This document shows, piece by piece, positions 13,275-58,152 of a stretch of 64,000 bases of DNA. The notes beneath the pieces are model-generated. The model was not told the DNA's origin. It made no database searches and was given only the letters and a program-made list of their open reading frames with translations. A program made the translations under genes and the position numbers. Position 1 is the stretch's first letter, and each line of letters starts with the position of its first letter. The DNA is from an uncultured Candidatus Saccharibacteria bacterium (GTDB lineage Bacteria > Patescibacteriota > Minisyncoccia > UBA6257 > 2-01-FULL-56-20), in contig CAYHXC010000003.1 of assembly GCA_964360585.1 (NCBI GenBank), positions 18,113-82,112 on the forward strand, given 5' to 3'.

Positions 13275-14479
13275 GAATCGCTATCTGTTCGGACAATTTT
13301 TATCCAGAAACAAGCGGCATCTCTGATTCGATTATTACGACGGCAAAAGCGCTCACCCAACTGGGACACGAAATCGCTTTTTTTGTGCCGGCTTACGGAG
13401 AAAAAGATTACAAAAAAATTGGCATCACGAAAACAGATGAGCCTGATTTCGGACCGCACATCTCCATTCATCGCTTCAGCTCTACTTCTTTTCCGACCGG
13501 CACTGGCCAAGGACGCATGGTGTTTCCGACTCCTTCCGGTCTCGCCGCGTTCCGAAAGTTCAATCCTGATGTGATCCACTCACAATTATTTTTTGGCGTG
13601 GGATTAAAAGCGTACTACGCTAGCCGACTCTTCCGAAAACCATTCGTCGGCACAAATCACACCGTGATTAAAGAGTTCGTCCGCTACAGTCCGATTCGTT
13701 TGCCTGGCCTCGCCGCGTTCGCCGATTGGTATATGAACTGGTATTACAATCGCGCAATTTTTGTGACCGCGCCGGCGCGATTTCTTTTAGAGGAAATGAT
13801 CCAATCACACATGATTCGCCCGAACGAAGTTGTGCCGAACTCGGTCGATATGCAGATTTTCGATCTGCCCCAGGAAAACAAAGAAAAACTGAAAGCCGAG
13901 TTTGGTCTCTCGCCGCACACTATTACCGTCGCCGGACGTCTCTCGAAGGAAAAAAGTTTGGATGTACTTTTTCGTATTTTCCAAATTGTTCAACAAGCTG
14001 TTCCCGACGCATCACTGGCCTTAGCCGGCAGTGGCAACGCCCATGATGAACTAGTAAACCTCGCAAAGGAACTTGGGATTAGCGATGGTGTTCACTTTGT
14101 TGGTACGCTTAGTCAGTCGAAGTTGGCGAGGCTTTACGGAGCAAGCGATATCTATGCCACCGCCAGCACTTCAGAGGTGCAAAGCATGACGATGATCCAG
14201 GCCATGGGCTGTGGCCTCCCCCTGATTGGAGTAAAATCCCATGGCGTTGGTGAGCAGATCAATGGCGAGAATGGCTACGCTTTTCCGCCCGGCGATATCT
14301 CTGGTTTTGCTCAAAAAATCATCTTCTTACTGCAAAATGAGCGCGAACGATCTGAACTGGGACAAAAAGCGGCCGCTTTTGCGAAAGCTCACTATACTCC
14401 GGCGGTGATCGCTCTGCGGTTCGAGAAGATTTACGAGGACGCCATAACTGCGTATCATAAGAAGGAAGCTAAGTCCTAA
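13271..14479 (+). CDS. glycosyltransferase family 4 (GT-B, group 1)
   Basis: 402 aa; MRIAICSDNFYPETSGISD N-terminal GT4 pattern; C-terminal E..G...IEAMA-like region (SMTMIQAMGCGLPLIG). Confidence 0.75.
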   Translation: MRIAICSDNFYPETSGISDSIITTAKALTQLGHEIAFFVPAYGEKDYKKIGITKTDEPDFGPHISIHRFSSTSFPTGTGQGRMVFPTPSGLAAFRKFNPDVIHSQLFFGVGLKAYYASRLFRKPFVGTNHTVIKEFVRYSPIRLPGLAAFADWYMNWYYNRAIFVTAPARFLLEEMIQSHMIRPNEVVPNSVDMQIFDLPQENKEKLKAEFGLSPHTITVAGRLSKEKSLDVLFRIFQIVQQAVPDASLALAGSGNAHDELVNLAKELGISDGVHFVGTLSQSKLARLYGASDIYATASTSEVQSMTMIQAMGCGLPLIGVKSHGVGEQINGENGYAFPPGDISGFAQKIIFLLQNERERSELGQKAAAFAKAHYTPAVIALRFEKIYEDAITAYHKKEAKS

Positions 14480-14490
14480 CCGCCCTACGG

Positions 14491-14634
14491 GATGAATCCC
14501 CACACCTAATCGGGAAATATTATTAAAGAAATAGAAATCATGATGCTAACCACGTCAAAAATAAAAAGGTTGTCTATAGGGTCGAGAGCTGGTCGCATGG
14601 TTGCGACCGTTCCCGATTAGGTGTGGGGATGAAA
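14491..14634 (+). promoter_or_regulatory. SD/start-codon-sequestering inverted-repeat element, copy 1 (upstream of GT2 gene)
   Basis: left arm GATGAATCCCCACACCTAATCGGGAA (14491-14517) is reverse-complementary to right arm TTCCCGATTAGGTGTGGGGATGAAA (14610-14634), about 21 contiguous bp; right arm contains AGGTG SD and the ATG (14629); about 93-nt spacer with GGTCGCA-TGG-TTGCGACC hairpin. Confidence 0.6.
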
Positions 14635-15381
14635 CTAAGTTTTTCTATTCCCGCCTACAACGAAGAAAAAAATATCTGGCGCTGTCTTGATTCTATTTTC
14701 CAGGAACTTAAAGGGAAAAAGTATCAGGTGGAAATCATTGTGGTTGATAATAACTCCACCGACCGGACTGCCGAGATCGCCAAATCATACGCTGGCGTGC
14801 GCGTTGTTCCGGAAACCAAAAAAGGATTGCTCTACGCCCGCGAACGAGGATACGAAACCGCAACTGGCGATCTGATCGCGAATGTTGATGCCGATACTAT
14901 TCTTACCCCTGGCTGGATTGATACGGTTTTCCAAGAGTTTGAAGAAAATCCAAATCTCGTTGCCTTAAGCGGCCCCTATGTTTACTACGATCTTCCGCCC
15001 TTGGTGCAGATGGTCACAAAATTTTTCTATAGTTTTGGATATATAGTTCACCGCTTCAATCTTCTTTTTGGCGGCAATGGCACCATGCTTCAGGGTGGCA
15101 ACTTTGTCTTACGAAAAACAGCGCTCGATGCTATCGGCGGATTTAATACCGACATTGCTTTCTACGGCGAAGACACCGATATCGCCGTGCGCATGAGTAC
15201 AGTTGGCAAAATAAAATTCACCTACCGCTTGCCGATGAAAACATCTGGCCGGCGCTTGGCTGAAGAAGGGGTAGTGACGACCGGTTTTCGGTATGCTATA
15301 AACCATTTCTGGATGCTCCTCTTTAAGAAACCGTTTACCGTGAAATACGGGGACGTGCGGGCTCCGGAAAAAACCACGTAA
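14623..15381 (+). CDS. glycosyltransferase family 2
   Basis: 252 aa; (M)KLSFSIPAYNEEKNIWRCLDSI...IIVVDNNSTDRTAEIA; DAD motif (NVDADT); probable true start ATG 14629. Confidence 0.75.
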   Translation: MGMKLSFSIPAYNEEKNIWRCLDSIFQELKGKKYQVEIIVVDNNSTDRTAEIAKSYAGVRVVPETKKGLLYARERGYETATGDLIANVDADTILTPGWIDTVFQEFEENPNLVALSGPYVYYDLPPLVQMVTKFFYSFGYIVHRFNLLFGGNGTMLQGGNFVLRKTALDAIGGFNTDIAFYGEDTDIAVRMSTVGKIKFTYRLPMKTSGRRLAEEGVVTTGFRYAINHFWMLLFKKPFTVKYGDVRAPEKTT

Positions 15382-15383
15382 AT

Positions 15384-15489
15384 GATCCCCCCACCTTCAT
15401 CTTAAAATACTCATGTTACTGTTTAAAAAAGTCGTTTATTATAAATTCAAATCCACCTCTTGTGGCGGGTTTAAGGTGGGGGCATGAAA
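15384..15489 (+). promoter_or_regulatory. SD-sequestering inverted-repeat element, copy 4 (weaker; upstream of sugar-phosphotransferase gene)
   Basis: left GATCCCCCCACCTTCATCTTAA (15384-15406) vs right TTAAGGTGGGGGCATGAAA (15471-15489): 10-11 bp core CCCCCACCTT/AAGGTGGGGG; same GGGG-ATG-AAA start context; about 65-nt spacer. Confidence 0.4.
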
Positions 15490-16818
15490 TCCCCTCTCTC
15501 GCAAAAGACACTCCTCCTTTTCCTAGGAGATATTGTCGTCCTCTACGCGGCGCTCCTCCTCGCGCTTATTATCCGTTATGGCAGCGGCTGGCAGGACGTC
15601 CTCGATCTCCATCTTGTCCCGTTCACCATTGTCTTTCTGCTCTGGCTGATCGTTTTCTACGTCGCCGGCCTCTACGATCTCCGCCGCCTGAAAAATAATA
15701 TAACCTTCCTTTCACTTCTCAGTGTGTCCCTGGCCTTCAATGTGCTTATTACCATTGCTCTTTTCTACTTCATCTCCGCCTTCGGCATCGCTCCTCGCGC
15801 TACCCTTTCCATTCTTGTTATCGTTTTCGTCATTCTTGAACTTTTGTGGCGACGATTTTTTAATGCCCGCTTAGGCCATGCGGCCAATTTATTTAACGTG
15901 CTCATGGTTGGCGATGACCCGACAATCCAGGAGCTCACTGCAACTTTACGAAAAGATCCCCAGATCGGCTACAAGGTAGCTTTCCATATTCAAGGAACTC
16001 ACGATCTGAAAGCCGTAGAGCAATTGGAGATTCTTCTCCGGGCTAAAGGAATTGACGTGGTTGTGGTACCGCACGGGGCAAAACAAAACGTTGAGTTGCA
16101 AAAGATTTTTTATGATCTTTTAGCTTCCGGCATCGCCGTCTATGACGTCCCCGCTTTTTACGAAGAAGTTTTCCGCAAGATTCCTTTAAAGAATGTTGAG
16201 GAGTCCTGGTTCCTCGAACACATCTCCGCCCGCCGCAATGTCTATGATGATCTGAAGCGTGTCGGAGAAATGGTTATCGCATTCGCGATCGGACTTATTC
16301 TCCTCCCCTTAATCGCCCTGGTCGCTCTTCTCGTCCGGTTCACCTCTCGAGGTCCAGCTATATTTTCTCAGGAGCGGGTGGGACTTCAAAACAAAAATTT
16401 CACCCTCTATAAGTTTCGCACCATGGTTGTGAACGCCGAGCGGAATGGTGTCCAGTGGGCAAGCAAGAATGATCCGCGCGTTACCCTTCTTGGCCGCTTC
16501 CTCCGCTACACCCATCTTGATGAACTGCCTCAACTCTGGAATATCCTACGCGGCGATTTGTCGTTCGTGGGTCCGCGACCAGAACGCCCTGAGTTTGTGG
16601 CCATGCTGGAAAAGGAAATCCCCTACTATGACATCCGCCATCTTATTACTCCTGGCGTGACCGGCTGGGCCCAGATCAACTATCGTTATGGCGCTTCCGT
16701 AGAGGATTCATTTGAAAAACTACAGTACGACATCTACTATCTCAAAAACCGTTCGCTCATTCTCGACATTGCCGTCATCTTGAAGACATTACGAACCCTC
16801 TTCGTTAATGCCTCCTAG
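15484..16818 (+). CDS. polyprenyl-phosphate sugar phosphotransferase (bacterial sugar transferase, WbaP/CpsE-like initiating enzyme)
   Basis: 444 aa; N-terminal TM helices; C-terminal PF02397-like block SQERVGLQNKNFTLYKFRTMVVNAE...DELPQLWNILRGDLSFVGPRP. Confidence 0.8.
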   Translation: MKSPLSQKTLLLFLGDIVVLYAALLLALIIRYGSGWQDVLDLHLVPFTIVFLLWLIVFYVAGLYDLRRLKNNITFLSLLSVSLAFNVLITIALFYFISAFGIAPRATLSILVIVFVILELLWRRFFNARLGHAANLFNVLMVGDDPTIQELTATLRKDPQIGYKVAFHIQGTHDLKAVEQLEILLRAKGIDVVVVPHGAKQNVELQKIFYDLLASGIAVYDVPAFYEEVFRKIPLKNVEESWFLEHISARRNVYDDLKRVGEMVIAFAIGLILLPLIALVALLVRFTSRGPAIFSQERVGLQNKNFTLYKFRTMVVNAERNGVQWASKNDPRVTLLGRFLRYTHLDELPQLWNILRGDLSFVGPRPERPEFVAMLEKEIPYYDIRHLITPGVTGWAQINYRYGASVEDSFEKLQYDIYYLKNRSLILDIAVILKTLRTLFVNAS

Positions 16819-16894
16819 GAGATCTCCTTATTCGAATTGTAAGGTAGAAATATTACCTTGCGACTCTATTTAGGAAATAGGGTAAAAAAAGGCT

Positions 16895-17033
16895 ATGAAT
16901 CCCCACACCTAATGGGAAAAATAGATATAATAGTTGTATAATGACACACATGGTTCTGATTATAAAAGAGGCGGATAGTAACGGGAAGTTCTGCCGCTAC
17001 GCGGCGATTTCCCATTAGGTGGGGGGATGAAAA
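16895..17033 (+). promoter_or_regulatory. SD-sequestering inverted-repeat element, copy 2 (upstream of epimerase gene)
   Basis: left ATGAATCCCCACACCTAATGGGAAA (16895-16920) vs right TTTCCCATTAGGTGGGGGGATGAAA (17008-17033), one mismatch; CGGGAA/TTCCCG of copy 1 replaced by TGGGAAA/TTTCCCA on both arms (compensatory); spacer has TTGTATAAT extended -10-like box and GCCGC-TAC-GCGGC hairpin. Confidence 0.6.
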
Positions 17034-17947
17034 TTCTTATAACCGGAGGGGCTGGATTCATCGCTTCTCATATCACCGACGCTTACGTCCAAGCTGGTCA
17101 CAAAGTGGTCGTGATCGATAACCTGAATACTGGTTTCCGGAGAAATGTAAATAAAAAAGCAAAATTTTATAAAGTAGATATCCGTGATCTTGACGCAATC
17201 CAAAAGATTTTCAAAAAGGAACGCCCGGAGATTGTGAATCATCACGCCGCCATCGCTGAGGTAGTGAAATCAGTTCGTAATCCGATTCCAACGTATGAAG
17301 TGAACGTGATTGGAATCGCCAATATCCTTCTTTCTTTTGGACAGTACGGCAAAGGGAAGAACAAAAAATTTATTTTCTCCTCAACAGGCGGCGCCCTCTA
17401 TGGCGAACCGAAAAAAATCCCTGCCGCTGAAACTACTCTGGTTGCTCCCCTCTCTCCGTATGGTCTCTCAAAACAACTCGGGGAAGACTTGATCCATTTT
17501 TATGCTCGGATGTACAAGTTTGATTACTATATCTTCCGCTATGCCAATGTGTATGGTCCTCGCCAAAACCCAAAAGGTGAAGCGGGTGTAGTCGCCATCT
17601 TCGGCGGTATTATGAAACGAGGCGAAGTACCGACTATCTTCGGTGATGGTACGAAGGCACGAGATTATGTGTATGTCGGCGATATCGTGAAAGCGAATCT
17701 CGCAGCGTTAAGGAAAGGAAAAAACGTTGCGACAAATATAGGTTGGGGCAAACTGATTACCGATCAGATGATTTTCGACACCATTGCTAAAACCCTGAAC
17801 TACAAACAAAAAGTAAAATACGCTCCCTATCGTTCAGGTGAAGTTTATCGCATTTCTCTAGACGCCGGAAAGGCGCGAAGCATTCTTGGCTGGAAACCAA
17901 CCGTTACTTTAGAAGAGGGTGTCCGCCGGACACTAGCCACTCTCTAG
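17027..17947 (+). CDS. NAD-dependent epimerase/dehydratase (UDP-glucose 4-epimerase-like SDR)
   Basis: 306 aa; MKILITGGAGFIASH Rossmann; YxxxK (YGLSKQLGE); extended-SDR architecture. Confidence 0.8.
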   Translation: MKILITGGAGFIASHITDAYVQAGHKVVVIDNLNTGFRRNVNKKAKFYKVDIRDLDAIQKIFKKERPEIVNHHAAIAEVVKSVRNPIPTYEVNVIGIANILLSFGQYGKGKNKKFIFSSTGGALYGEPKKIPAAETTLVAPLSPYGLSKQLGEDLIHFYARMYKFDYYIFRYANVYGPRQNPKGEAGVVAIFGGIMKRGEVPTIFGDGTKARDYVYVGDIVKANLAALRKGKNVATNIGWGKLITDQMIFDTIAKTLNYKQKVKYAPYRSGEVYRISLDAGKARSILGWKPTVTLEEGVRRTLATL

Positions 17948-28967: not shown

Positions 28968-29121
28968 AATAACGTATTCATACTAACTCAGATTCCCGCG
29001 AAGCGAAAGTTCTATCTTGGCTCGAAATAATTTGAAATAGTAACTTACTTTATATGTCACTCTATTGTGTAAGGTAGCACACAGGAACATAAAGATTGAC
29101 CGGAGAAGTTCGTCAACTGGC

Positions 29122-29394
29122 TAGAACCCATCTCAAAAATATATCAAGTCGCGTTTCGTCTGTTTTCCCGATTACGCAAGGCGCCGCTTCTCGAAGGTGT
29201 ACTTTGCGTACTCCGAGAAAGCGGCAACACAGCGTATCGGAAAAACAGACAAAACCCTTGGGGATAGGACTCCCGAACGCGATACCAGTGTCACTTCGGA
29301 GCTCAATGTGCCGCGAGCACACCTTCGTTCTTGTTTCGCGGTATCGCATTCAGGAGTCGATATCGCGACTGCTATATTTTTGAGATGGGTTCTA
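29122..29394. mobile_element. MITE-like palindromic element, copy A (22-bp perfect TIRs, TA flanks)
   Basis: TAGAACCCATCTCAAAAATATA at 29122-29143 is the exact reverse complement of 29373-29394; internal long imperfect palindrome; about 98% identical to 47338-47611; TA dinucleotide on both flanks; no credible ORF (ORF-track ORFs 29096/29113/29197 are translations of the repeat). Confidence 0.6.
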
Positions 29395-30349
29395 TGCTCT
29401 TGTCGGCTTCGATCATCTTCTTCACTCCGTCTTCAAGACTGTATTTCGGCCGCCACGAAAAGACACAGAACGTCTTGGCCATATCCGCCGCCTGACAACC
29501 ACTATCATGCGGGGGTTGTTCTAGACTACCCCAAAGAACTTTGCTTTTGGAACCGGTTTGTTTGATGACCAGATCCACAAGCTCGGCAAGCGTCACCGCC
29601 TGGCCGGAGGCGAGGTTAAATATTTCGCCTTTTTGAGCGGCGCTCTTTTCCATCGCTTCTACTAAAATCTCGATAACGTCACTGATAAAAATAAGATCTC
29701 TATTTACTGCCGGACTGGTGAGGCGAATATCCTCATTTCTCAGCGATGCACTAACTAGAACTTCCATAAGCTTCCCCCTTTCCATACCAGGTCCGTAGGG
29801 CGTAAAGATGCGAAACACCGTAATGGGTTTGCCGAAGGCATCCGCGAATGCTTGGCAGTAGAGAGAGGCTGTGAGTTTGGCTAAACCATAGGGGACCGTT
29901 GGTTCACACTGATTACGTTCCTGAAGTGGAGCTTTTTTGATCCCATACTCTAATGAACTACCGGCCTGAATGAAAAATTGGTAGTTGTCCTCACGAAGAG
30001 CCTGGAGAAGCCAGATAGTCCCAAGGGTATTGACCCGAATGAACTCTTCCGCGGATGTTTCACTATCTATGCGGGTGAGACGAGCGGCCAGATGAAAGAC
30101 GCCGCGCGGATGGAGACCGTGCAAAGCTTTCTCGACCTCTACAGGGTTCGCAATATCGCCCATGCGAACTTCTAAACTCGGCAAGAGATCCTTGATTCTC
30201 CGCACATCCGAATCTGGCTGAAGCAGGATCGCCACCCGATGACCATCACGCACCAAGCGACGTACCAGATGAGACCCAATAAAACCGGAAGCACCCGTCA
30301 CTAGAATGGGCGGCTTCATACCGTTCTCTATCTCCACATTGGTTGCCAT
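29372..30349 (-). CDS. NAD-dependent epimerase/dehydratase (extended SDR)
   Basis: 325 aa; ILVTGASGFIGSHLVRRL; YGLAKLTASLY (YxxxK); 3' end overlaps TIR of MITE-like copy A. Confidence 0.75.
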   Translation of the reverse strand: MATNVEIENGMKPPILVTGASGFIGSHLVRRLVRDGHRVAILLQPDSDVRRIKDLLPSLEVRMGDIANPVEVEKALHGLHPRGVFHLAARLTRIDSETSAEEFIRVNTLGTIWLLQALREDNYQFFIQAGSSLEYGIKKAPLQERNQCEPTVPYGLAKLTASLYCQAFADAFGKPITVFRIFTPYGPGMERGKLMEVLVSASLRNEDIRLTSPAVNRDLIFISDVIEILVEAMEKSAAQKGEIFNLASGQAVTLAELVDLVIKQTGSKSKVLWGSLEQPPHDSGCQAADMAKTFCVFSWRPKYSLEDGVKKMIEADKSIEPISKI

Positions 30350-31476: not shown

Positions 31477-32544
31477 TCAACGCACACCACCACGTAGATA
31501 CATAATTCCCGTGCGTACGAACAAGCGGATTTTTTTGAACGCGACCCAGATACGCCAGACGATGGGATAGATACCATACTTTCTGGCGAAATATACGTCC
31601 ATAAATTTTCTGTACCTCTCCCCTTTCCAGGGAGTCATCTTCACATAACGAAGATAGTCGGCATGAAATGGCATGGCTGAGAAGAAGTACCAGGGCTTGC
31701 CACCTCCCGAGTAATGGACGATGAGTGGATCGGGAACACCAAGCTTATCGGCTATATCGGTGATGAGATTGTAACGTGGTGGTAACTCGAGGCAGTCTCC
31801 CCACAGAACGATGTTCAAGGCGTCTTGGTCATGATAGGAGAGTTTGTTCGGGTGCGCCGTGATAATATCGAGAGCTTGGTCTTGGACAGCAAGGTTTCGC
31901 CAGCGTTCGACATCAACAAGCATAATCCCCGAATTAAAGTAAAACGTGGAAGTCGGCGGCGGCGTCACACCGACTGCTTGAGCGAGAGCGCGTAAGTGGT
32001 TCATCTTGTAATCCGGATCAGGATCGGCCACCACCCCCATGGTTTTACCTTGTAGATCCAGATTATAAAATTCCGCGATGTCTCCCCGGACAACCGTATC
32101 GACATCGAGGTTGATGGCCTTACGACAAGTCAGTGGAAGAATTTGACCCAAGGCCAGACGGTGATAGTTTTGGATGGGTAGTCGATAGTGTCCAGCCAGT
32201 TTATGTATAGGAACCTTACCAAAATATTCTTCGTTTGGCGTAACATACTGAATGGAAAAACCATATCGCTTTTCGAGTACATGCAACCGTTCTTTGCTCC
32301 GATCGGAAAGCCCTGAATCAATAATGTAGATGTCGATCGAGTAGTCACCCTTCTTGTTCTCAAAGAGCGAGCAGAGACAGGTGCCCAGGAGGACAGCGTA
32401 GCGATCATCACACGATAGAATAATGGGGATTGATTTCATAGCAATTAATAATGGTCCAATTATACACCCCGAAGTGACACTAAACAATCTCCCAGAGCTC
32501 ATCTCAAAAATAGATCCGTCGCGTTCATCCTCAGTTTTTATCAT
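31477..32544 (-). CDS. glycosyltransferase family 8 (LPS galactosyl/glucosyltransferase-like)
   Basis: 355 aa; IPIILSCDDRYAVLLGTCLCSLFEN...IYIIDSGLS...AINLDVDTVV (DxD) ...FNSGIMLVDVERW. Confidence 0.65.
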   Translation of the reverse strand: MIKTEDERDGSIFEMSSGRLFSVTSGCIIGPLLIAMKSIPIILSCDDRYAVLLGTCLCSLFENKKGDYSIDIYIIDSGLSDRSKERLHVLEKRYGFSIQYVTPNEEYFGKVPIHKLAGHYRLPIQNYHRLALGQILPLTCRKAINLDVDTVVRGDIAEFYNLDLQGKTMGVVADPDPDYKMNHLRALAQAVGVTPPPTSTFYFNSGIMLVDVERWRNLAVQDQALDIITAHPNKLSYHDQDALNIVLWGDCLELPPRYNLITDIADKLGVPDPLIVHYSGGGKPWYFFSAMPFHADYLRYVKMTPWKGERYRKFMDVYFARKYGIYPIVWRIWVAFKKIRLFVRTGIMYLRGGVR

Positions 32545-32813
32545 CCACCGAGGCAGGACGAGGAGACATAGGCTTTGTCTAGACTCCGAGGAGTAACGAT
32601 GGTGGTGATAAAAACTGAGAGAACCGAAGGATAGGAAGAAATGATTCGAATATGTCGTTGCTGCGTTCTCGATGTATCTTTGGATACACCTTCGAACTTG
32701 CGCCTCGTCTTCGAGTCATTTCTTCTCTATCGCGACAGGGTATATTTTTGAGATGAGCTCTTGATTGGTTAAATCCGACAGAGGAACTATAATATAACAG
32801 TACAAAATGAACT

Positions 32814-55905: not shown

Positions 55906-55921
55906 TCTCCAAATTTTTTAC

Positions 55922-55956
55922 AACCGAACACATCTGTGTTCGGTTTTTTCATTTTT
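55922..55956 (+). terminator. rho-independent terminator (AACCGAACACA-TCT-TGTGTTCGGTT + TTTTCATTTTT)
   Basis: 11-bp stem, 3-nt loop, T-tract; immediately after the 36-bp array, orientation implies plus-strand transcription of the array. Confidence 0.8.
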
Positions 55957-56007
55957 AGCTAAACATTCTCTTTTCCGATACAATTAAGTAACAAACTCAA
56001 TGCCGAA

Positions 56008-56145
56008 ATCCCCTCACCTCATGAGAAATGAGTTGTTGGGAGCTTATTTGTCCACGCACGAAACTATGACTACACAAGAGTCGAAAAATATACCTAGATT
56101 CGGTCGCTTTCAAGCGACGGTTTCTCATTAGGTGTGGGGATGAAA
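56008..56145 (+). promoter_or_regulatory. SD-sequestering inverted-repeat element, copy 3 (upstream of gpmI)
   Basis: left ATCCCCTCACCTCATGAGAAA (56008-56028) pairs with right TTTCTCATTAGGTGTGGGGATGAAA (56121-56145) at 17 of 19 positions; GAGAAA/TTTCTC replaces GGGAA/TTCCC of copies 1-2 on both arms; about 92-nt spacer with GGTCGC-TTTCAA-GCGACG hairpin; right arm holds SD and ATG 56140. Confidence 0.55.
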
Positions 56146-57669
56146 CCCGTAATGGTCTTAATTGTGCTCGACGGCTGGGGAATCGGAAATCACGATGCCT
56201 CCAACCCGATGCGCCAGGCCAAAATGCCGACGTTTGACTGGCTGCGCGAGCATTTTCCCATGACCAGTCTCCAGGCTTCCGGAATTTCCGTCGGTCTCCC
56301 CTGGGGCGAAACCTCAAATAGCGAGGTCGGTCACCTGACGATCGGCGCCGGGAAAGTTATTTATCAGTACTATCCGCGCATTATTCTCGGCATTCGCGAC
56401 CAGAGTTTTTTTGCGAACGAAGCCTTGCTCGGCGCCTGTGAGCATGCGCGCAAAAATAACTCGGCCGTAAATCTGATGGGGCTTCTCACTAAGGGAAATG
56501 TCCATGCTTCGCTTGAGCACATGCTGGCCTTAATCAAGCTCGTCGAAGATCAGAAAGTAAAATACAAAGTGCACATCTGGTCGGACGGCAAAGACAGTCC
56601 GCCGGGTACGTTTACTGAATTTTTCAAAGCGGTGCCTAAAGATAAACTGGCGAGCATAACCGGGCGCTACTACGCCATGGATCACGCTAAGAATTGGCGG
56701 AACACCGAACGAGCCTACCAGGGCTTCACGAGCGAAGCGGCCGAGCTCGTGACCGACGTACAACCGACGCTCGATAATTTGCGCGAACAAAAACTTTCTG
56801 AAGAATTTATTCCGCCGCTCCGTTTTGGTCCGGGCGCGCCAATCCAGGATAACGAAGCAATTATTTTTTGGAACTTCCGCGAAGATGGCGTTCGTCAGTT
56901 GACTGAAGCGTTTCTCATTCCGGACTTCTCCATGTTTCCGGTCAAAAAATTTGAGAATCTGCACATCGTCACCATGACTCGGTACGAAGATCATTTCACC
57001 GTGCCCGTGGCCTATCCGCCTGATGAAGTAAAAAATCCTCTGGGAAAAGTACTCTCGGACAATAATGTGAGCCAGCTCCGCCTCGCCGAAACCTATAAAT
57101 ACGCGCACGTTACTTATTTTTTTAACGGCTATGAAGAAAAACCCTATCCCAACGAATACCGCATTCTGATTCCCTCCCTCACTATTCCTCACTTGGCGGA
57201 TAATCCGGAGATGATGGCAACCGCCATTACCGATCGCGCCATCGCCGCCATCCAAGACCACTCCTTTGACTTCATTCTCATTAATTACGCGAATGGCGAC
57301 ATGATCGCCCACACCGGAAATTTCAATGCGGGCGTGAAGGCGGCCGAAATTATCGATCGCGAGATCGGCCGAATTTTAAAAGTTGCCTTGGCCACGCCGG
57401 CCACCGTCCTTATTACCGCTGATCACGGCAACTTGGAAGAGATGTACAATCCCTTAACCGGTCGGTACGAAACCCAACACGATCCCAATCCCGTTCCATG
57501 TTATATTTTCGGCCCCGGCCTCGAAGGAAAAAAATTTATCAACCAGGACACCTACGAAAAAGAAACGCTTGGTATTCTTTCTGATGTCGCACCGACCATT
57601 CTCCGCATTCTTGGCATCGTACCTCCGCCGGACATGACGGGGCATAATCTTCTCGAAAAACTCGTCTGA
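56134..57669 (+). CDS. gpmI: 2,3-bisphosphoglycerate-independent phosphoglycerate mutase
   Basis: 511 aa; (M)KPVMVLIVLDGWGIG..., SGISVGLPWGETSNSEVGHLTIGAG, C-terminal ITADHGN metalloenzyme motif. Confidence 0.9.
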   Translation: MGMKPVMVLIVLDGWGIGNHDASNPMRQAKMPTFDWLREHFPMTSLQASGISVGLPWGETSNSEVGHLTIGAGKVIYQYYPRIILGIRDQSFFANEALLGACEHARKNNSAVNLMGLLTKGNVHASLEHMLALIKLVEDQKVKYKVHIWSDGKDSPPGTFTEFFKAVPKDKLASITGRYYAMDHAKNWRNTERAYQGFTSEAAELVTDVQPTLDNLREQKLSEEFIPPLRFGPGAPIQDNEAIIFWNFREDGVRQLTEAFLIPDFSMFPVKKFENLHIVTMTRYEDHFTVPVAYPPDEVKNPLGKVLSDNNVSQLRLAETYKYAHVTYFFNGYEEKPYPNEYRILIPSLTIPHLADNPEMMATAITDRAIAAIQDHSFDFILINYANGDMIAHTGNFNAGVKAAEIIDREIGRILKVALATPATVLITADHGNLEEMYNPLTGRYETQHDPNPVPCYIFGPGLEGKKFINQDTYEKETLGILSDVAPTILRILGIVPPPDMTGHNLLEKLV

Positions 57670-57789
57670 CACTGAATCACAAAACGCGAACTACTTTGTT
57701 ACTGACTGCGCTTCGCCCTCGCTGTATGCTATACACCTCGGTTACGATGCTCGTCAAAGCCTCGTATTTCATCGTTTTGTGATTCAGTG
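57670..57789 (+). promoter_or_regulatory. 17-bp perfect inverted repeat (CACTGAATCACAAAACG ... CGTTTTGTGATTCAGTG) flanking an 86-bp spacer between gpmI and downstream gene
   Basis: left arm starts at the last base of the gpmI stop codon (57670-57686); right arm 57773-57789, 12 nt before ATG 57802; spacer has a reverse-oriented TTGACG-18-TATAGC promoter-like pair. Confidence 0.55.
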
Positions 57790-57801
57790 TAGAATACGAA
57801 T

Positions 57802-58152
57802 ATGCGAATTTTAGTTGCATTAATCGGAAATGCCTTTGCTCTTCTCTTAGCTCAAGCCCTCATCCCGAACGTCGAGCTTTCCTCGAACTTTTTTGATGTT
57901 CTTCTGATCGCCCTCATCTTGACCGCGCTTAATTTTTTCCTGAAACCGATCCTCACCCTCATCTTCGGTCCAATTATCATTCTCACCCTTGGTTTCGGCA
58001 TCATTATTATCAACATGCTCATCATCTATATTCTTGACATTCTCTCCAAAGGGATTACGATTCAAGGGAATCTTGTGCTCACACTCTTCTTGGTTTCTCT
58101 GATCGTTGGAGTGGTGAACACGATCGTCCACGCTAAAGGAAAAAAACTATGA
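57802..58152 (+). CDS. small integral membrane protein (3-4 TM; holin-like/unknown)
   Basis: 116 aa, hydrophobic throughout; no confident family assignment. Confidence 0.3.
   Translation: MRILVALIGNAFALLLAQALIPNVELSSNFFDVLLIALILTALNFFLKPILTLIFGPIIILTLGFGIIIINMLIIYILDILSKGITIQGNLVLTLFLVSLIVGVVNTIVHAKGKKL

Follow-up and report, generated by a model that had tools for sequence, protein, structure and literature searches.

Start-codon insertions in a Patescibacteria glycan operon: a probable MITE family derived from a small GIY-YIG nuclease element

Described small repeats and the start-codon modules

Correia elements (NEMIS) of Neisseria and ERIC sequences occur near genes in many dispersed copies of approximately 100–150 bp, with terminal inverted repeats and a target duplication. 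Elements of this kind share a transcript with the adjacent gene and form a long hairpin in it, which for Correia is cut by RNase III and alters expression (PMC10969869; PMC3184786). A similar architecture was found in a stretch of 64,000 nt (the window) of contig CAYHXC010000003.1, assigned to an uncultured Candidatus Saccharibacteria bacterium, a member of the candidate phyla radiation (CPR; Patescibacteria) with 48% G+C. Inverted-repeat modules precede three consecutive genes of a glycan operon in the window (GT2, sugar transferase and epimerase) and, at a fourth site, a gpmI-like gene. We consider it probable (roughly 85%) that these modules form a family of MITEs (miniature transposable elements with inverted repeats) which derives from a mini-element with a GIY-YIG nuclease gene and was inserted in start codons.

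The modules differ from the described repeats in several respects. Correia elements have 26-bp repeats, a TA duplication and an IHF site and belong to Neisseria, whereas the sequence found here is unrelated, the duplication is a 4-bp TNNA-like one and the host is a CPR bacterium. Compared with Correia and ERIC, the insertion lies inside the start codon, the end of the element supplies ATG together with a Shine-Dalgarno (SD)-like AGGTG, and the parent carries a GIY-YIG gene instead of a DDE transposase. Repeats located just upstream of many genes and supplying a ribosome-binding site and ATG are known as REP2 (CREN) in Neisseria and as IR in Borrelia (PMC3184786); REP2 lacks terminal inverted repeats and a known target duplication and brings a promoter, while in this case a repeat-bounded insertion was found and no promoter was detected. 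Rickettsia palindromic elements (RPEs) are mobile palindromes tolerated in or at coding sequence, with a length and frame that suit translation (PMC10969869), but they insert within genes, preserve the frame and are translated as a portion of the protein, whereas the modules lie outside the host open reading frame (ORF) and are read as a separate short ORF. Mycobacterial MIRUs are small intergenic repeats inside operons (PMC3184786). They consist of 40–100-bp direct-repeat units and differ from the modules in lacking long terminal inverted repeats and an associated nuclease gene. In work by Supply et al. from 1997, the short ORF of MIRUs reportedly overlaps the stop and start of the flanking genes, suggesting translational coupling.

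With respect to the nuclease, GIY-YIG homing endonuclease genes, both free-standing and intron-borne, are likewise selfish elements whose sole gene encodes a GIY-YIG nuclease. The homing enzymes carry an extra DNA-binding domain, are copied to one cognate site via homologous repair and have neither terminal repeats nor a duplication (PMC1564403), in contrast to the catalytic core of only 84–88 amino acids (aa), terminal repeats, 4-bp duplication and many unrelated loci encountered here. The closest likeness in sequence and minimal size is to the Slx1-like/UPF0213 proteins (1ZG2, 1YWL), a family treated as vertically inherited DNA-repair proteins (PMC1564403), whereas in the parent element the gene lies between terminal repeats as a mobile unit. 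A study of groundwater listed a GIY-YIG protein among the genes passed from Patescibacteria to other bacteria and inferred exchange between Omnitrophota and Patescibacteria (PMC12455944). The terms 'start codon', 'Shine-Dalgarno', 'ribosome' and 'GIY' are all absent from a 2024 review of prokaryotic MITEs (PMC10969869), and neither GIY-YIG elements bounded by repeats nor start-codon-rebuilding MITEs nor MITEs in CPR or Omnitrophota were found described in the full texts searched, which include few subscription journals.

Filled and empty sites in the glycan operon

The initial annotation had placed an inverted-repeat module before each of the genes starting at 14629 (GT2), 15484 (sugar transferase) and 17027 (epimerase), and these positions were confirmed. 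A search of the window with ATTAGGTGTGGGGATG at up to three mismatches returned six matches against 0.25 expected by chance and also brought to light a fourth copy, overlooked in the annotation. The arms of copy 1 (14496–14516 and 14610–14630) comprise 21 nt each, are 100% complementary and are separated by 93 nt; those of copy 3 (16899–16919 and 17008–17028) are also 21 nt long, with 95% complementarity (one mismatch) and a gap of 88 nt. The arms of copy 2 (15385–15397 and 15473–15485) reach only 13 nt, with 92% complementarity (one mismatch) and a gap of 75 nt, so that the annotated complementarity of 20–25 bp holds for copies 1 and 3 and not for copy 2. The annotation had correctly located AGGTG and the start codon in the G-rich arm of copies 1–3, where the start codon forms the end of the arm (AGGTGNGGGNATG); an RNA containing both arms would bury them.

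Evidence for insertion came from three relatives which share the gene order Cpn10 ... thioredoxin reductase, glutaredoxin, VTT, GT4, GT2, sugar transferase, epimerase (loci L167, L169/L170 and L171/L172) and whose sugar transferases are 69–73% identical to the window protein. All three operon junctions are uninterrupted (ATGAAA or ATGA) in L167, L170 and L171, and no copy of the element was detected in these relatives within 9–13 kb. At the GT4/GT2 junction, the empty site of L167 reads ..CTGATGAAACTGAGC, whereas the filled site of the window reads ..GGGA[TGAA]TCCCCACACC...GGTGTGGGGA[TGAA]ACTAAG. The GT2/transferase junction, a 4-nt overlap when empty (..TCATGAGCTC), is filled as ..A[TGA]TCCCCCC...GGGGGCA[TGA]AATCC, and the transferase/epimerase junction (empty, ..ACTATGAAAATTATCG) shows the same TGAA arrangement as GT4/GT2. 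The pattern A[TGAA]TCCCC...GGGGA[TGAA]A of the window faces one TGAA in the relatives; the duplicated target is TGAA in copies 1 and 3, TGA in copy 2 and decayed in copy 4. The modules are insertions bounded by terminal inverted repeats and a target duplication. Since the element ends in A, insertion between A and TGAA re-creates ATGAA and leaves the host ORF unchanged. Precise deletion as the origin of the empty sites is unlikely because TGAA is duplicated at the filled ones.

In copy 1 (all features of the four copies lie on the plus strand), the left duplication TGAA at 14493–14496 overlaps the former GT2 start codon (14492–14494) and corresponds to the single TGAA of the empty sites in L167 and L170 (..ATGAAACTGAGC and ..ATGAAACTCAGC). 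The element proper (14497–14629; 133 nt; TCCCCACACCTAATCGGGAA ... TTCCCGATTAGGTGTGGGGA) has perfect arms and scored 69.5 bits forward and 20.0 bits reverse with an nhmmer profile; the GT2 start codon at 14629–14631 is composed of its final A and the duplicated TG, with the right duplication TGAA at 14630–14633. From the former start codon, a mini-ORF (14492–14509) reads ATG AAT CCC CAC ACC TAA, i.e. MNPHT and a stop within the left repeat. The same outcome was obtained wherever a former start codon is joined to the element, and the six codons recur in copy 3 and in locus L033. A remnant ORF follows at 14540–14620 (MMLTTSKIKRLSIGSRAGRMVATVPD and stop), with its TAG (14618–14620) in the right repeat, 8 nt 5′ of the GT2 ATG; it corresponds to the GIY-YIG gene with an in-frame deletion, and within it GTCGAGAGC corresponds to the stretch of the full-length element in L174 that encodes the C-terminus.

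Copy 2 (15386–15484; 99 nt) belongs to the CCCCCCACCT subfamily and escapes the nhmmer profile, which represents the long subfamily. It is flanked by TGA at 15383–15385 and 15485–15487, where the relatives have a 4-nt ATGA gene overlap. The former ATG (15382–15384) lies directly 3′ of the GT2 stop TAA (15379–15381), and the new sugar-transferase start is at 15484–15486. Its internal ORF (15413–15487; MLLFKKVVYYKFKSTSCGGFKVGA and stop) ends in a TGA that overlaps the host ATG as ATGA. In copy 3, the left duplication TGAA (16896–16899) overlaps the former epimerase start (16895–16897), and the empty sites in L167, L170 and L171 read ..ATGAAAATTATCG. A mini-ORF MNPHT (16895–16912) precedes the element proper (16900–17027; 128 nt; 54.1 bits forward, 15.6 reverse), which is followed by the new epimerase start at 17027–17029 and the right duplication TGAA at 17028–17031. 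The remnant ORF of copy 3 (16941–17018; MTHMVLIIKEADSNGKFCRYAAISH and stop) also terminates at a TAG in the right repeat, and AAAAGAGGCGGATAGTAAC near it resembles the ..KRRIV.. coding part of full-length elements.

Copy 4 (56009–56140; 132 nt; 51.6 bits forward, 17.0 reverse) lies 5′ of the gpmI-like gene (start 56140–56142) and shows that the module is not tied to glycan genes. Its left duplication has decayed (CGAAA at 56004–56008 vs. TGAAA at 56141–56145) and its 21-nt arms contain two mismatches (approximately 90% complementarity), so it is probably an older insertion; an open frame at 56021–56131 (MRNELLGAYLSTHETMTTQESKNIPRFGRFQATVSH and stop) again ends at a TAG in the right repeat. Approximately 55 nt upstream, at 55921–55955, a hairpin followed by a T run (AACCGAACACATCTGTGTTCGGTTTTTTCATTTTT) resembles a terminator, and copy 4, unlike copies 1–3, may therefore escape read-through from an upstream gene. 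The profile returned no further copies of the long subfamily in the window.

The empty-site host genes have no SD-like sequence 5′ of their ATG, e.g. GTAGTAATCTGATG and TAATCTCACTATG (L167 5215–5285, L170 5206–5285 and 7310–7385, L171 2890–2960), and the element brings AGGTG 5 nt 5′ of the rebuilt ATG. Given these empty sites, the genes or the lineage may initiate SD-free, and the repeat's AGGTG does not have to serve as an SD. The closest sugar-transferase homologues carry the names Liptonbacteria, Parcubacteria or Paceibacterota, and a GT2 protein 100% identical to that of the window was present on four further contigs from Hainich groundwater (0.1 µm fraction).

The GIY-YIG parent element and its derivatives

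Longer copies with the same repeats contain a GIY-YIG ORF (L093, L112, L143, where it occurs twice, and L110/L101). The full element measures approximately 330 bp and consists of 20–25-bp terminal inverted repeats (T/C-CCCCACACCTAAT...) around one gene of 84–88 codons; in L093 and L143, arm pairs 280–310 nt apart enclose an ORF of 86 codons. Within its 84–88 aa the nuclease contains PF01541 only (E = 4e-17), and its nearest structures in the PDB are the UPF0213 proteins 1ZG2 (E = 5e-6) and 1YWL (E = 4e-5), of the type that constitutes the minimal prokaryotic Slx1-like group (PMC1564403). At least ten GIY-YIG genes of the parent type were detected by tblastn over the collected loci. The last codons of the nuclease gene and its stop (ATTAGG), approximately 8 nt 5′ of the host ATG, fall within the right repeat, and the nuclease ATG follows the left repeat after only 6–15 nt, a gap too short to hold a separate promoter.

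The interiors of the MITEs match the C-terminus of the nuclease, with 86% identity over aa 66–86 in L067/L083 and 71% over aa 54–84 in L148. Because these interiors are pieces of the nuclease 3′ end, the motif 'AAAGAGGCG...GTCGC' and the small GC hairpin annotated beside the right arm derive from the coding end ...QLKRRIV.SLK.. and its stop. Judged by their sequence, the window copies are in-frame, internally deleted derivatives of the GIY-YIG mini-element.

The association of gene and repeats was also met from the protein side. A protein search returned at least 408 clusters, which in several CPR lineages bear the name 'GIY-YIG nuclease family protein'. Six homologues were retrieved with protein similarity as the sole criterion, and every one was located between CCCCACAC(C/T)T-type repeats, co-oriented with and abutting the next gene. 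Among these full-length elements, one is on the start codon of a GT4 gene (L173), one between infB and rbfA (L174) and one 3 nt 5′ of a FemAB gene (L179/L180); further repeat-flanked homologues are found in L175, L183 and L186. Proteins identical to P0156 or P0216 occur on many contigs, but these represent one locus in many samples and hence give no evidence of recent jumps. For annotation, hairpins that enclose an SD and ATG and many of the genes named 'GIY-YIG nuclease family protein' in small genomes may be mobile DNA instead of regulators or repair genes, and each host gene then offers two start codons between which gene callers may choose wrongly.

Copies outside the window were collected in two scans. 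In species-representative genomes, the pattern ATCCCCNCACCT-N85-115-AGGTGNGGGGATG yielded 45 loci, mostly in metagenome-assembled genomes of Omnitrophota (53–70% G+C, several with about ten copies), with one labelled locus each in Liptonbacteria, Saccharibacteria and Stahlbacteria. At nearly all of them a long ORF belonging to an unrelated gene starts at the terminal ATG (rpoC, rplO, rpsH, efp, frr, glyQS, lpxC, nrdR); rbfA is also among the host genes of the family elsewhere. A palindromic pattern without the ATG yielded at least 117 loci in metagenomes, many of them from Hainich, and a minimum of 100 distinct copies, which come from groundwater and sediment. Among the matches listed, a perfect 4-nt direct repeat abuts the ends of 62 of 104 distinct copies (p ~1e-100; TTTA, TAAA, TTGA, TCAA, TGAA, TTCA and others), and several other copies have a 5-nt repeat. 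About 24 of these 104 listed copies are on start codons, all of them T...A-ended like those of the window and with the terminal ATG opening a long ORF, while the listed CCCCC...GGGGG-ended types are mostly at other AT-rich sites (TTTA, TAAA, TCAA). Tandem copies with one common duplication were found in L006, L022, L047 and L143. With terminal repeats, target duplication, filled and empty sites, dispersed copies and, in the window copies, a length of 99–133 nt without a complete enzyme gene, the family bears the hallmarks of MITEs. The repeat core common to Patescibacteria and Omnitrophota constitutes a concrete marker of DNA exchange.

Other arrangements were observed alongside these copies. 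Bare palindromes of two terminal repeats with almost no interior (e.g. ATCCCCCCACCTTTAAAGGTGGGGGGAT), as well as head-to-tail arrays of several elements, are present at L061 2943–2967, L134 ~615–660 and L159 4143–4170; these appear to be derivatives in which deletion has gone to an extreme. On the minus strand of L111 (5071–4823) and L112 (8545–8297) there is a related GIY-YIG ORF that lacks CCCCACACCT repeats and is flanked by another hairpin (CAGCACCACTTTTGAAGTAAAAGTGGTGCTG); it continues in frame as a prepilin-like N-terminus (..GFTLIEIIVVMGLL), repeats the motif SKQK.. and hints at other repeat families of such elements. Other small GIY-YIG genes without the repeats of the element (L175 2924–3184; L139/L056) adjoin tRNA-like sequence or lie between direct repeats (GGCGGTCTGTCTC.CT.CGCGAGATCTGG), and the nuclease family may comprise several mobile lineages with different ends.

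Reading frames, rival explanations and other repeats

Of the 27 start-site copies of the CPR subtype, 25 have interiors that face one way with respect to the host gene (p = 6e-6) in spite of the symmetric ends, compared with a split of 38 to 45 for non-start copies among the matches listed; the window copies scored 52–70 bits forward against 16–20 bits reverse. An ATG-started ORF of 17–36 codons, ending at the parental TAG 11 nt 5′ of the host ATG, was retained in 24 of the 27 (threshold, at least 15 codons), whereas the control frames gave 1/27 and 0/27 (Fisher 3e-16) and a median open run of 10 codons instead of 30; these p-values overstate the evidence because copies within a subfamily share descent. 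An internal ORF is present in all four window copies, with remnant ORFs of 24–36 codons, and several of the retained ORFs are plain in-frame deletions, e.g. L095 (MKNYQLKRRIVASLKAN and stop). The pattern recurs over diverged subfamilies, in both subtypes and in AT-rich sequence.

The second subtype is a GC-rich variant found on start codons of housekeeping genes in Omnitrophota (L005–L049). A TGA duplication is present in 43 of the 49 copies from the genome scan, which are mostly from Omnitrophota, and since the preceding base is mostly A (41; G in 2, T in 1), it marks a former start codon. Of 43 copies, 39 have a length of 2 mod 3, and ten distinct lengths occur. The frame of the former ATG (MIPPP... 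or MIPTP..., in which the repeat itself codes for the run of prolines) extends from one end of the element to the other; it is stop-free in 35/43 copies, compared with 14/43 for another frame and 15–20/43 for the antisense frames, and it terminates at the TGA of ATGA in 33 of the 43. GGAG, GAGG or AGGA occurs 5′ of the former ATG in 15/43 copies, against a background of 12%. Both orientations of the interior were seen at different loci (L028 vs. L030; L029 vs. L034/L041), and in L029 and L034/L041 the frame is open in both.

These arrangements suggest how an element inside a start codon might be tolerated. The operon transcript would contain both arms, and their pairing would lock the host start codon in a 20-bp GC-rich stem; ribosomes translating the short internal ORF could melt the right arm, terminate 8 nt 5′ of the host AUG (overlapping it in copy 2, ATGA) and then re-initiate on the host gene. 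In a full-length element the chain would run from the former start through MNPHT and the nuclease ORF to the host ORF, so that the nuclease would be expressed from the transcription and translation signals of its host. An element that occupies a start codon, leaves the gene intact and apparently depends on being translated through would be a parasite tuned to harmlessness where intergenic space is scarce, and its copies are natural test cases for ribosome-driven unfolding and re-initiation. As a hypothesis only, the nuclease, akin to the structure-specific Slx1, might cut the extruded hairpin or cruciform and thereby mobilise the element. A more far-reaching reading, which we put forward tentatively and at somewhat worse than even odds, is that the window copies are relics of a class of autonomous ~330-bp transposons in which a sole Slx1-like GIY-YIG nuclease of 84–88 aa acts as transposase on hairpin or cruciform ends by non-standard chemistry; such elements would insert into and rebuild start codons, be expressed by translational coupling and have spread between Patescibacteria and Omnitrophota in groundwater, with their derivatives kept 'translation-transparent' by selection. 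If the minimal nuclease were indeed the mobiliser, it would represent a new enzyme class in DNA transposition, with a protein of 86 aa and a defined end of 20–25 bp.

Several observations weigh against a MITE family mobilised and maintained in this manner. Translational coupling and the mobilising role of the nuclease are both inferred from sequence. With 120 GIY-YIG proteins as tblastn queries, no intact nuclease gene was found in the 64-kb window, and the Omnitrophota loci, queried by tblastn with the nuclease, gave no match and hence no Omnitrophota parent element. Target duplications are imperfect or unclear in the full-length elements of L174, L175, L183 and L186. Copy 2 has short arms (13 nt) and a weak predicted fold (−26.2 kcal/mol; z −1.8; 12 of 200 shuffles equally good). 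The retention of ORFs may be due in part to a recent origin of the copies from a parent whose frame was open, instead of to selection, the start-codon bias could result from purifying selection on random TNNA insertions instead of targeting, and an unseen conventional transposase could act in trans with the nuclease as cargo.

Taken together, such possibilities amount to an account in terms of ordinary MITEs, inserted at any TNNA site by an unseen standard transposase with the GIY-YIG gene as passenger, in which harmless start-codon copies survive, the hairpin is irrelevant and the ORFs are unselected. We regard this as unlikely, although it survives better than the other alternatives. It agrees with the preference of most listed CCCCC...GGGGG-ended copies for TTTA, TAAA or TCAA over start codons and with the lack of a nuclease gene in the window. 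It is opposed by the ORF that runs to the parental stop in 24/27 copies, against at most 1/27 in control frames, despite AT-rich and diverged interiors, by the fixed orientation of elements with symmetric ends, by the Omnitrophota length of 2 mod 3 with its open frame, and by the position of all nuclease homologues examined between these repeats. A conventional autonomous partner was sought among unpaired arms and arm pairs 0.2–3 kb apart at all loci, and only the GIY-YIG units of 280–310 nt, but no transposase-sized element, were recovered.

A dedicated RNA-level translational repressor, thermosensor- or riboswitch-like and co-regulating the glycan genes, had been one proposal of the initial annotation and is now very improbable. 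It would explain the presence of the module at three consecutive genes of one operon and the stable stems that hold AGGTG and AUG: the predicted folds of copy 1 (−59.5 kcal/mol; z −8.9 vs. shuffles), copy 3 (−47.8 kcal/mol; z −4.8) and copy 4 (−49.5 kcal/mol; z −4.1) pair the SD-like AGGTG and the start codon in a stable helix, which is a structural resemblance only. The arms also covary. Over 27 related copies, 98% of cells are paired and 7 of 20 pairs are altered on both sides, values attained by no shuffle or slid register. As the left repeat tracks the changes of the coding right repeat, complementarity itself is maintained, and to this extent the selection for pairing proposed earlier stands. 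Single-sided departures comprise G-U pairs in 5 cells and other mismatches in 11, so G-U is not favoured and nothing points to an RNA-specific constraint; such covariation is what the terminal repeats of one mobile family show. A repressor is contradicted by the absence of the module from the orthologous junctions of three syntenic relatives, by the target-site duplications, by the occurrence of the same family at gpmI and unrelated housekeeping genes elsewhere, and by an interior without a conserved ligand-pocket-like part (mean column identity 54%), whose conserved portion is the remnant of a protein-coding 3′ end. No Rfam family matched the window at gathering score, and only chance-level matches at E up to 10 were obtained in 14400–17100. 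The notion of a coordinated control layer on the glycan locus falls with copy 4, the unrelated host genes and the empty sites.

The weakest alternative, an inverton in which recombinase-site repeats flip a promoter-bearing spacer, is hardly credible: inverted repeats do surround an AT-rich spacer, an isolated TGTATAAT is present in copy 3 (16936–16943) and Omnitrophota interiors occur in both orientations at different loci, yet the latter is expected of independent insertions, 25 of 27 start-site copies share one orientation, and a single orientation, without any flipped spacer, was found in five assemblies of the window locus and likewise in each of 14 other loci for which two or three assemblies exist. 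The TTGTATAAT box formerly assigned to copy 2 is in fact in copy 3 (16935–16943) and has no −35 partner; a consensus promoter and terminator scan of 14300–17200 detected no −35/−10 pair in the spacers, with counts at shuffle level. No recombinase was found among the genes adjoining the locus, which match those of the relatives and to which the search was limited. Two independent assemblies, L002 and L004 (ENA ERZ1292643 and Logan ERR3858115), both stop in the middle of the copy 3 spacer at 16976–16978 instead of at its repeats; coverage may be low there or strains may differ, and this is not the break pattern expected of an inversion. Hairpin elements of the IS200/IS605 type were rejected since these are not known to make a target duplication, and integron attC sites in view of the housekeeping genes and the start codon inside the repeat; Tn3-type ends and the IS10 end, a chance resemblance, were rejected as well.

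Besides the start-codon MITEs, the window contains a second, unrelated MITE-like family with three copies in 64 kb (29111–29405, 32494–32761 and 47336–47613). Its units measure approximately 270–295 nt and have terminal inverted repeats of 24–36 nt (TCTAGAACCCATCTCAAAAATATATCA and TGCTATATTTTTGAGATGGGTTCTAGA), with 220–224 nt between the arms. A perfect 18-nt inverted repeat (ACACTGAATCACAAAACG and CGTTTTGTGATTCAGTGT; 86 nt between the arms) at 57669–57790 begins at the final base of the gpmI-like stop codon and ends 11 nt 5′ of the ORF at 57802; it looks like a third family of small elements.

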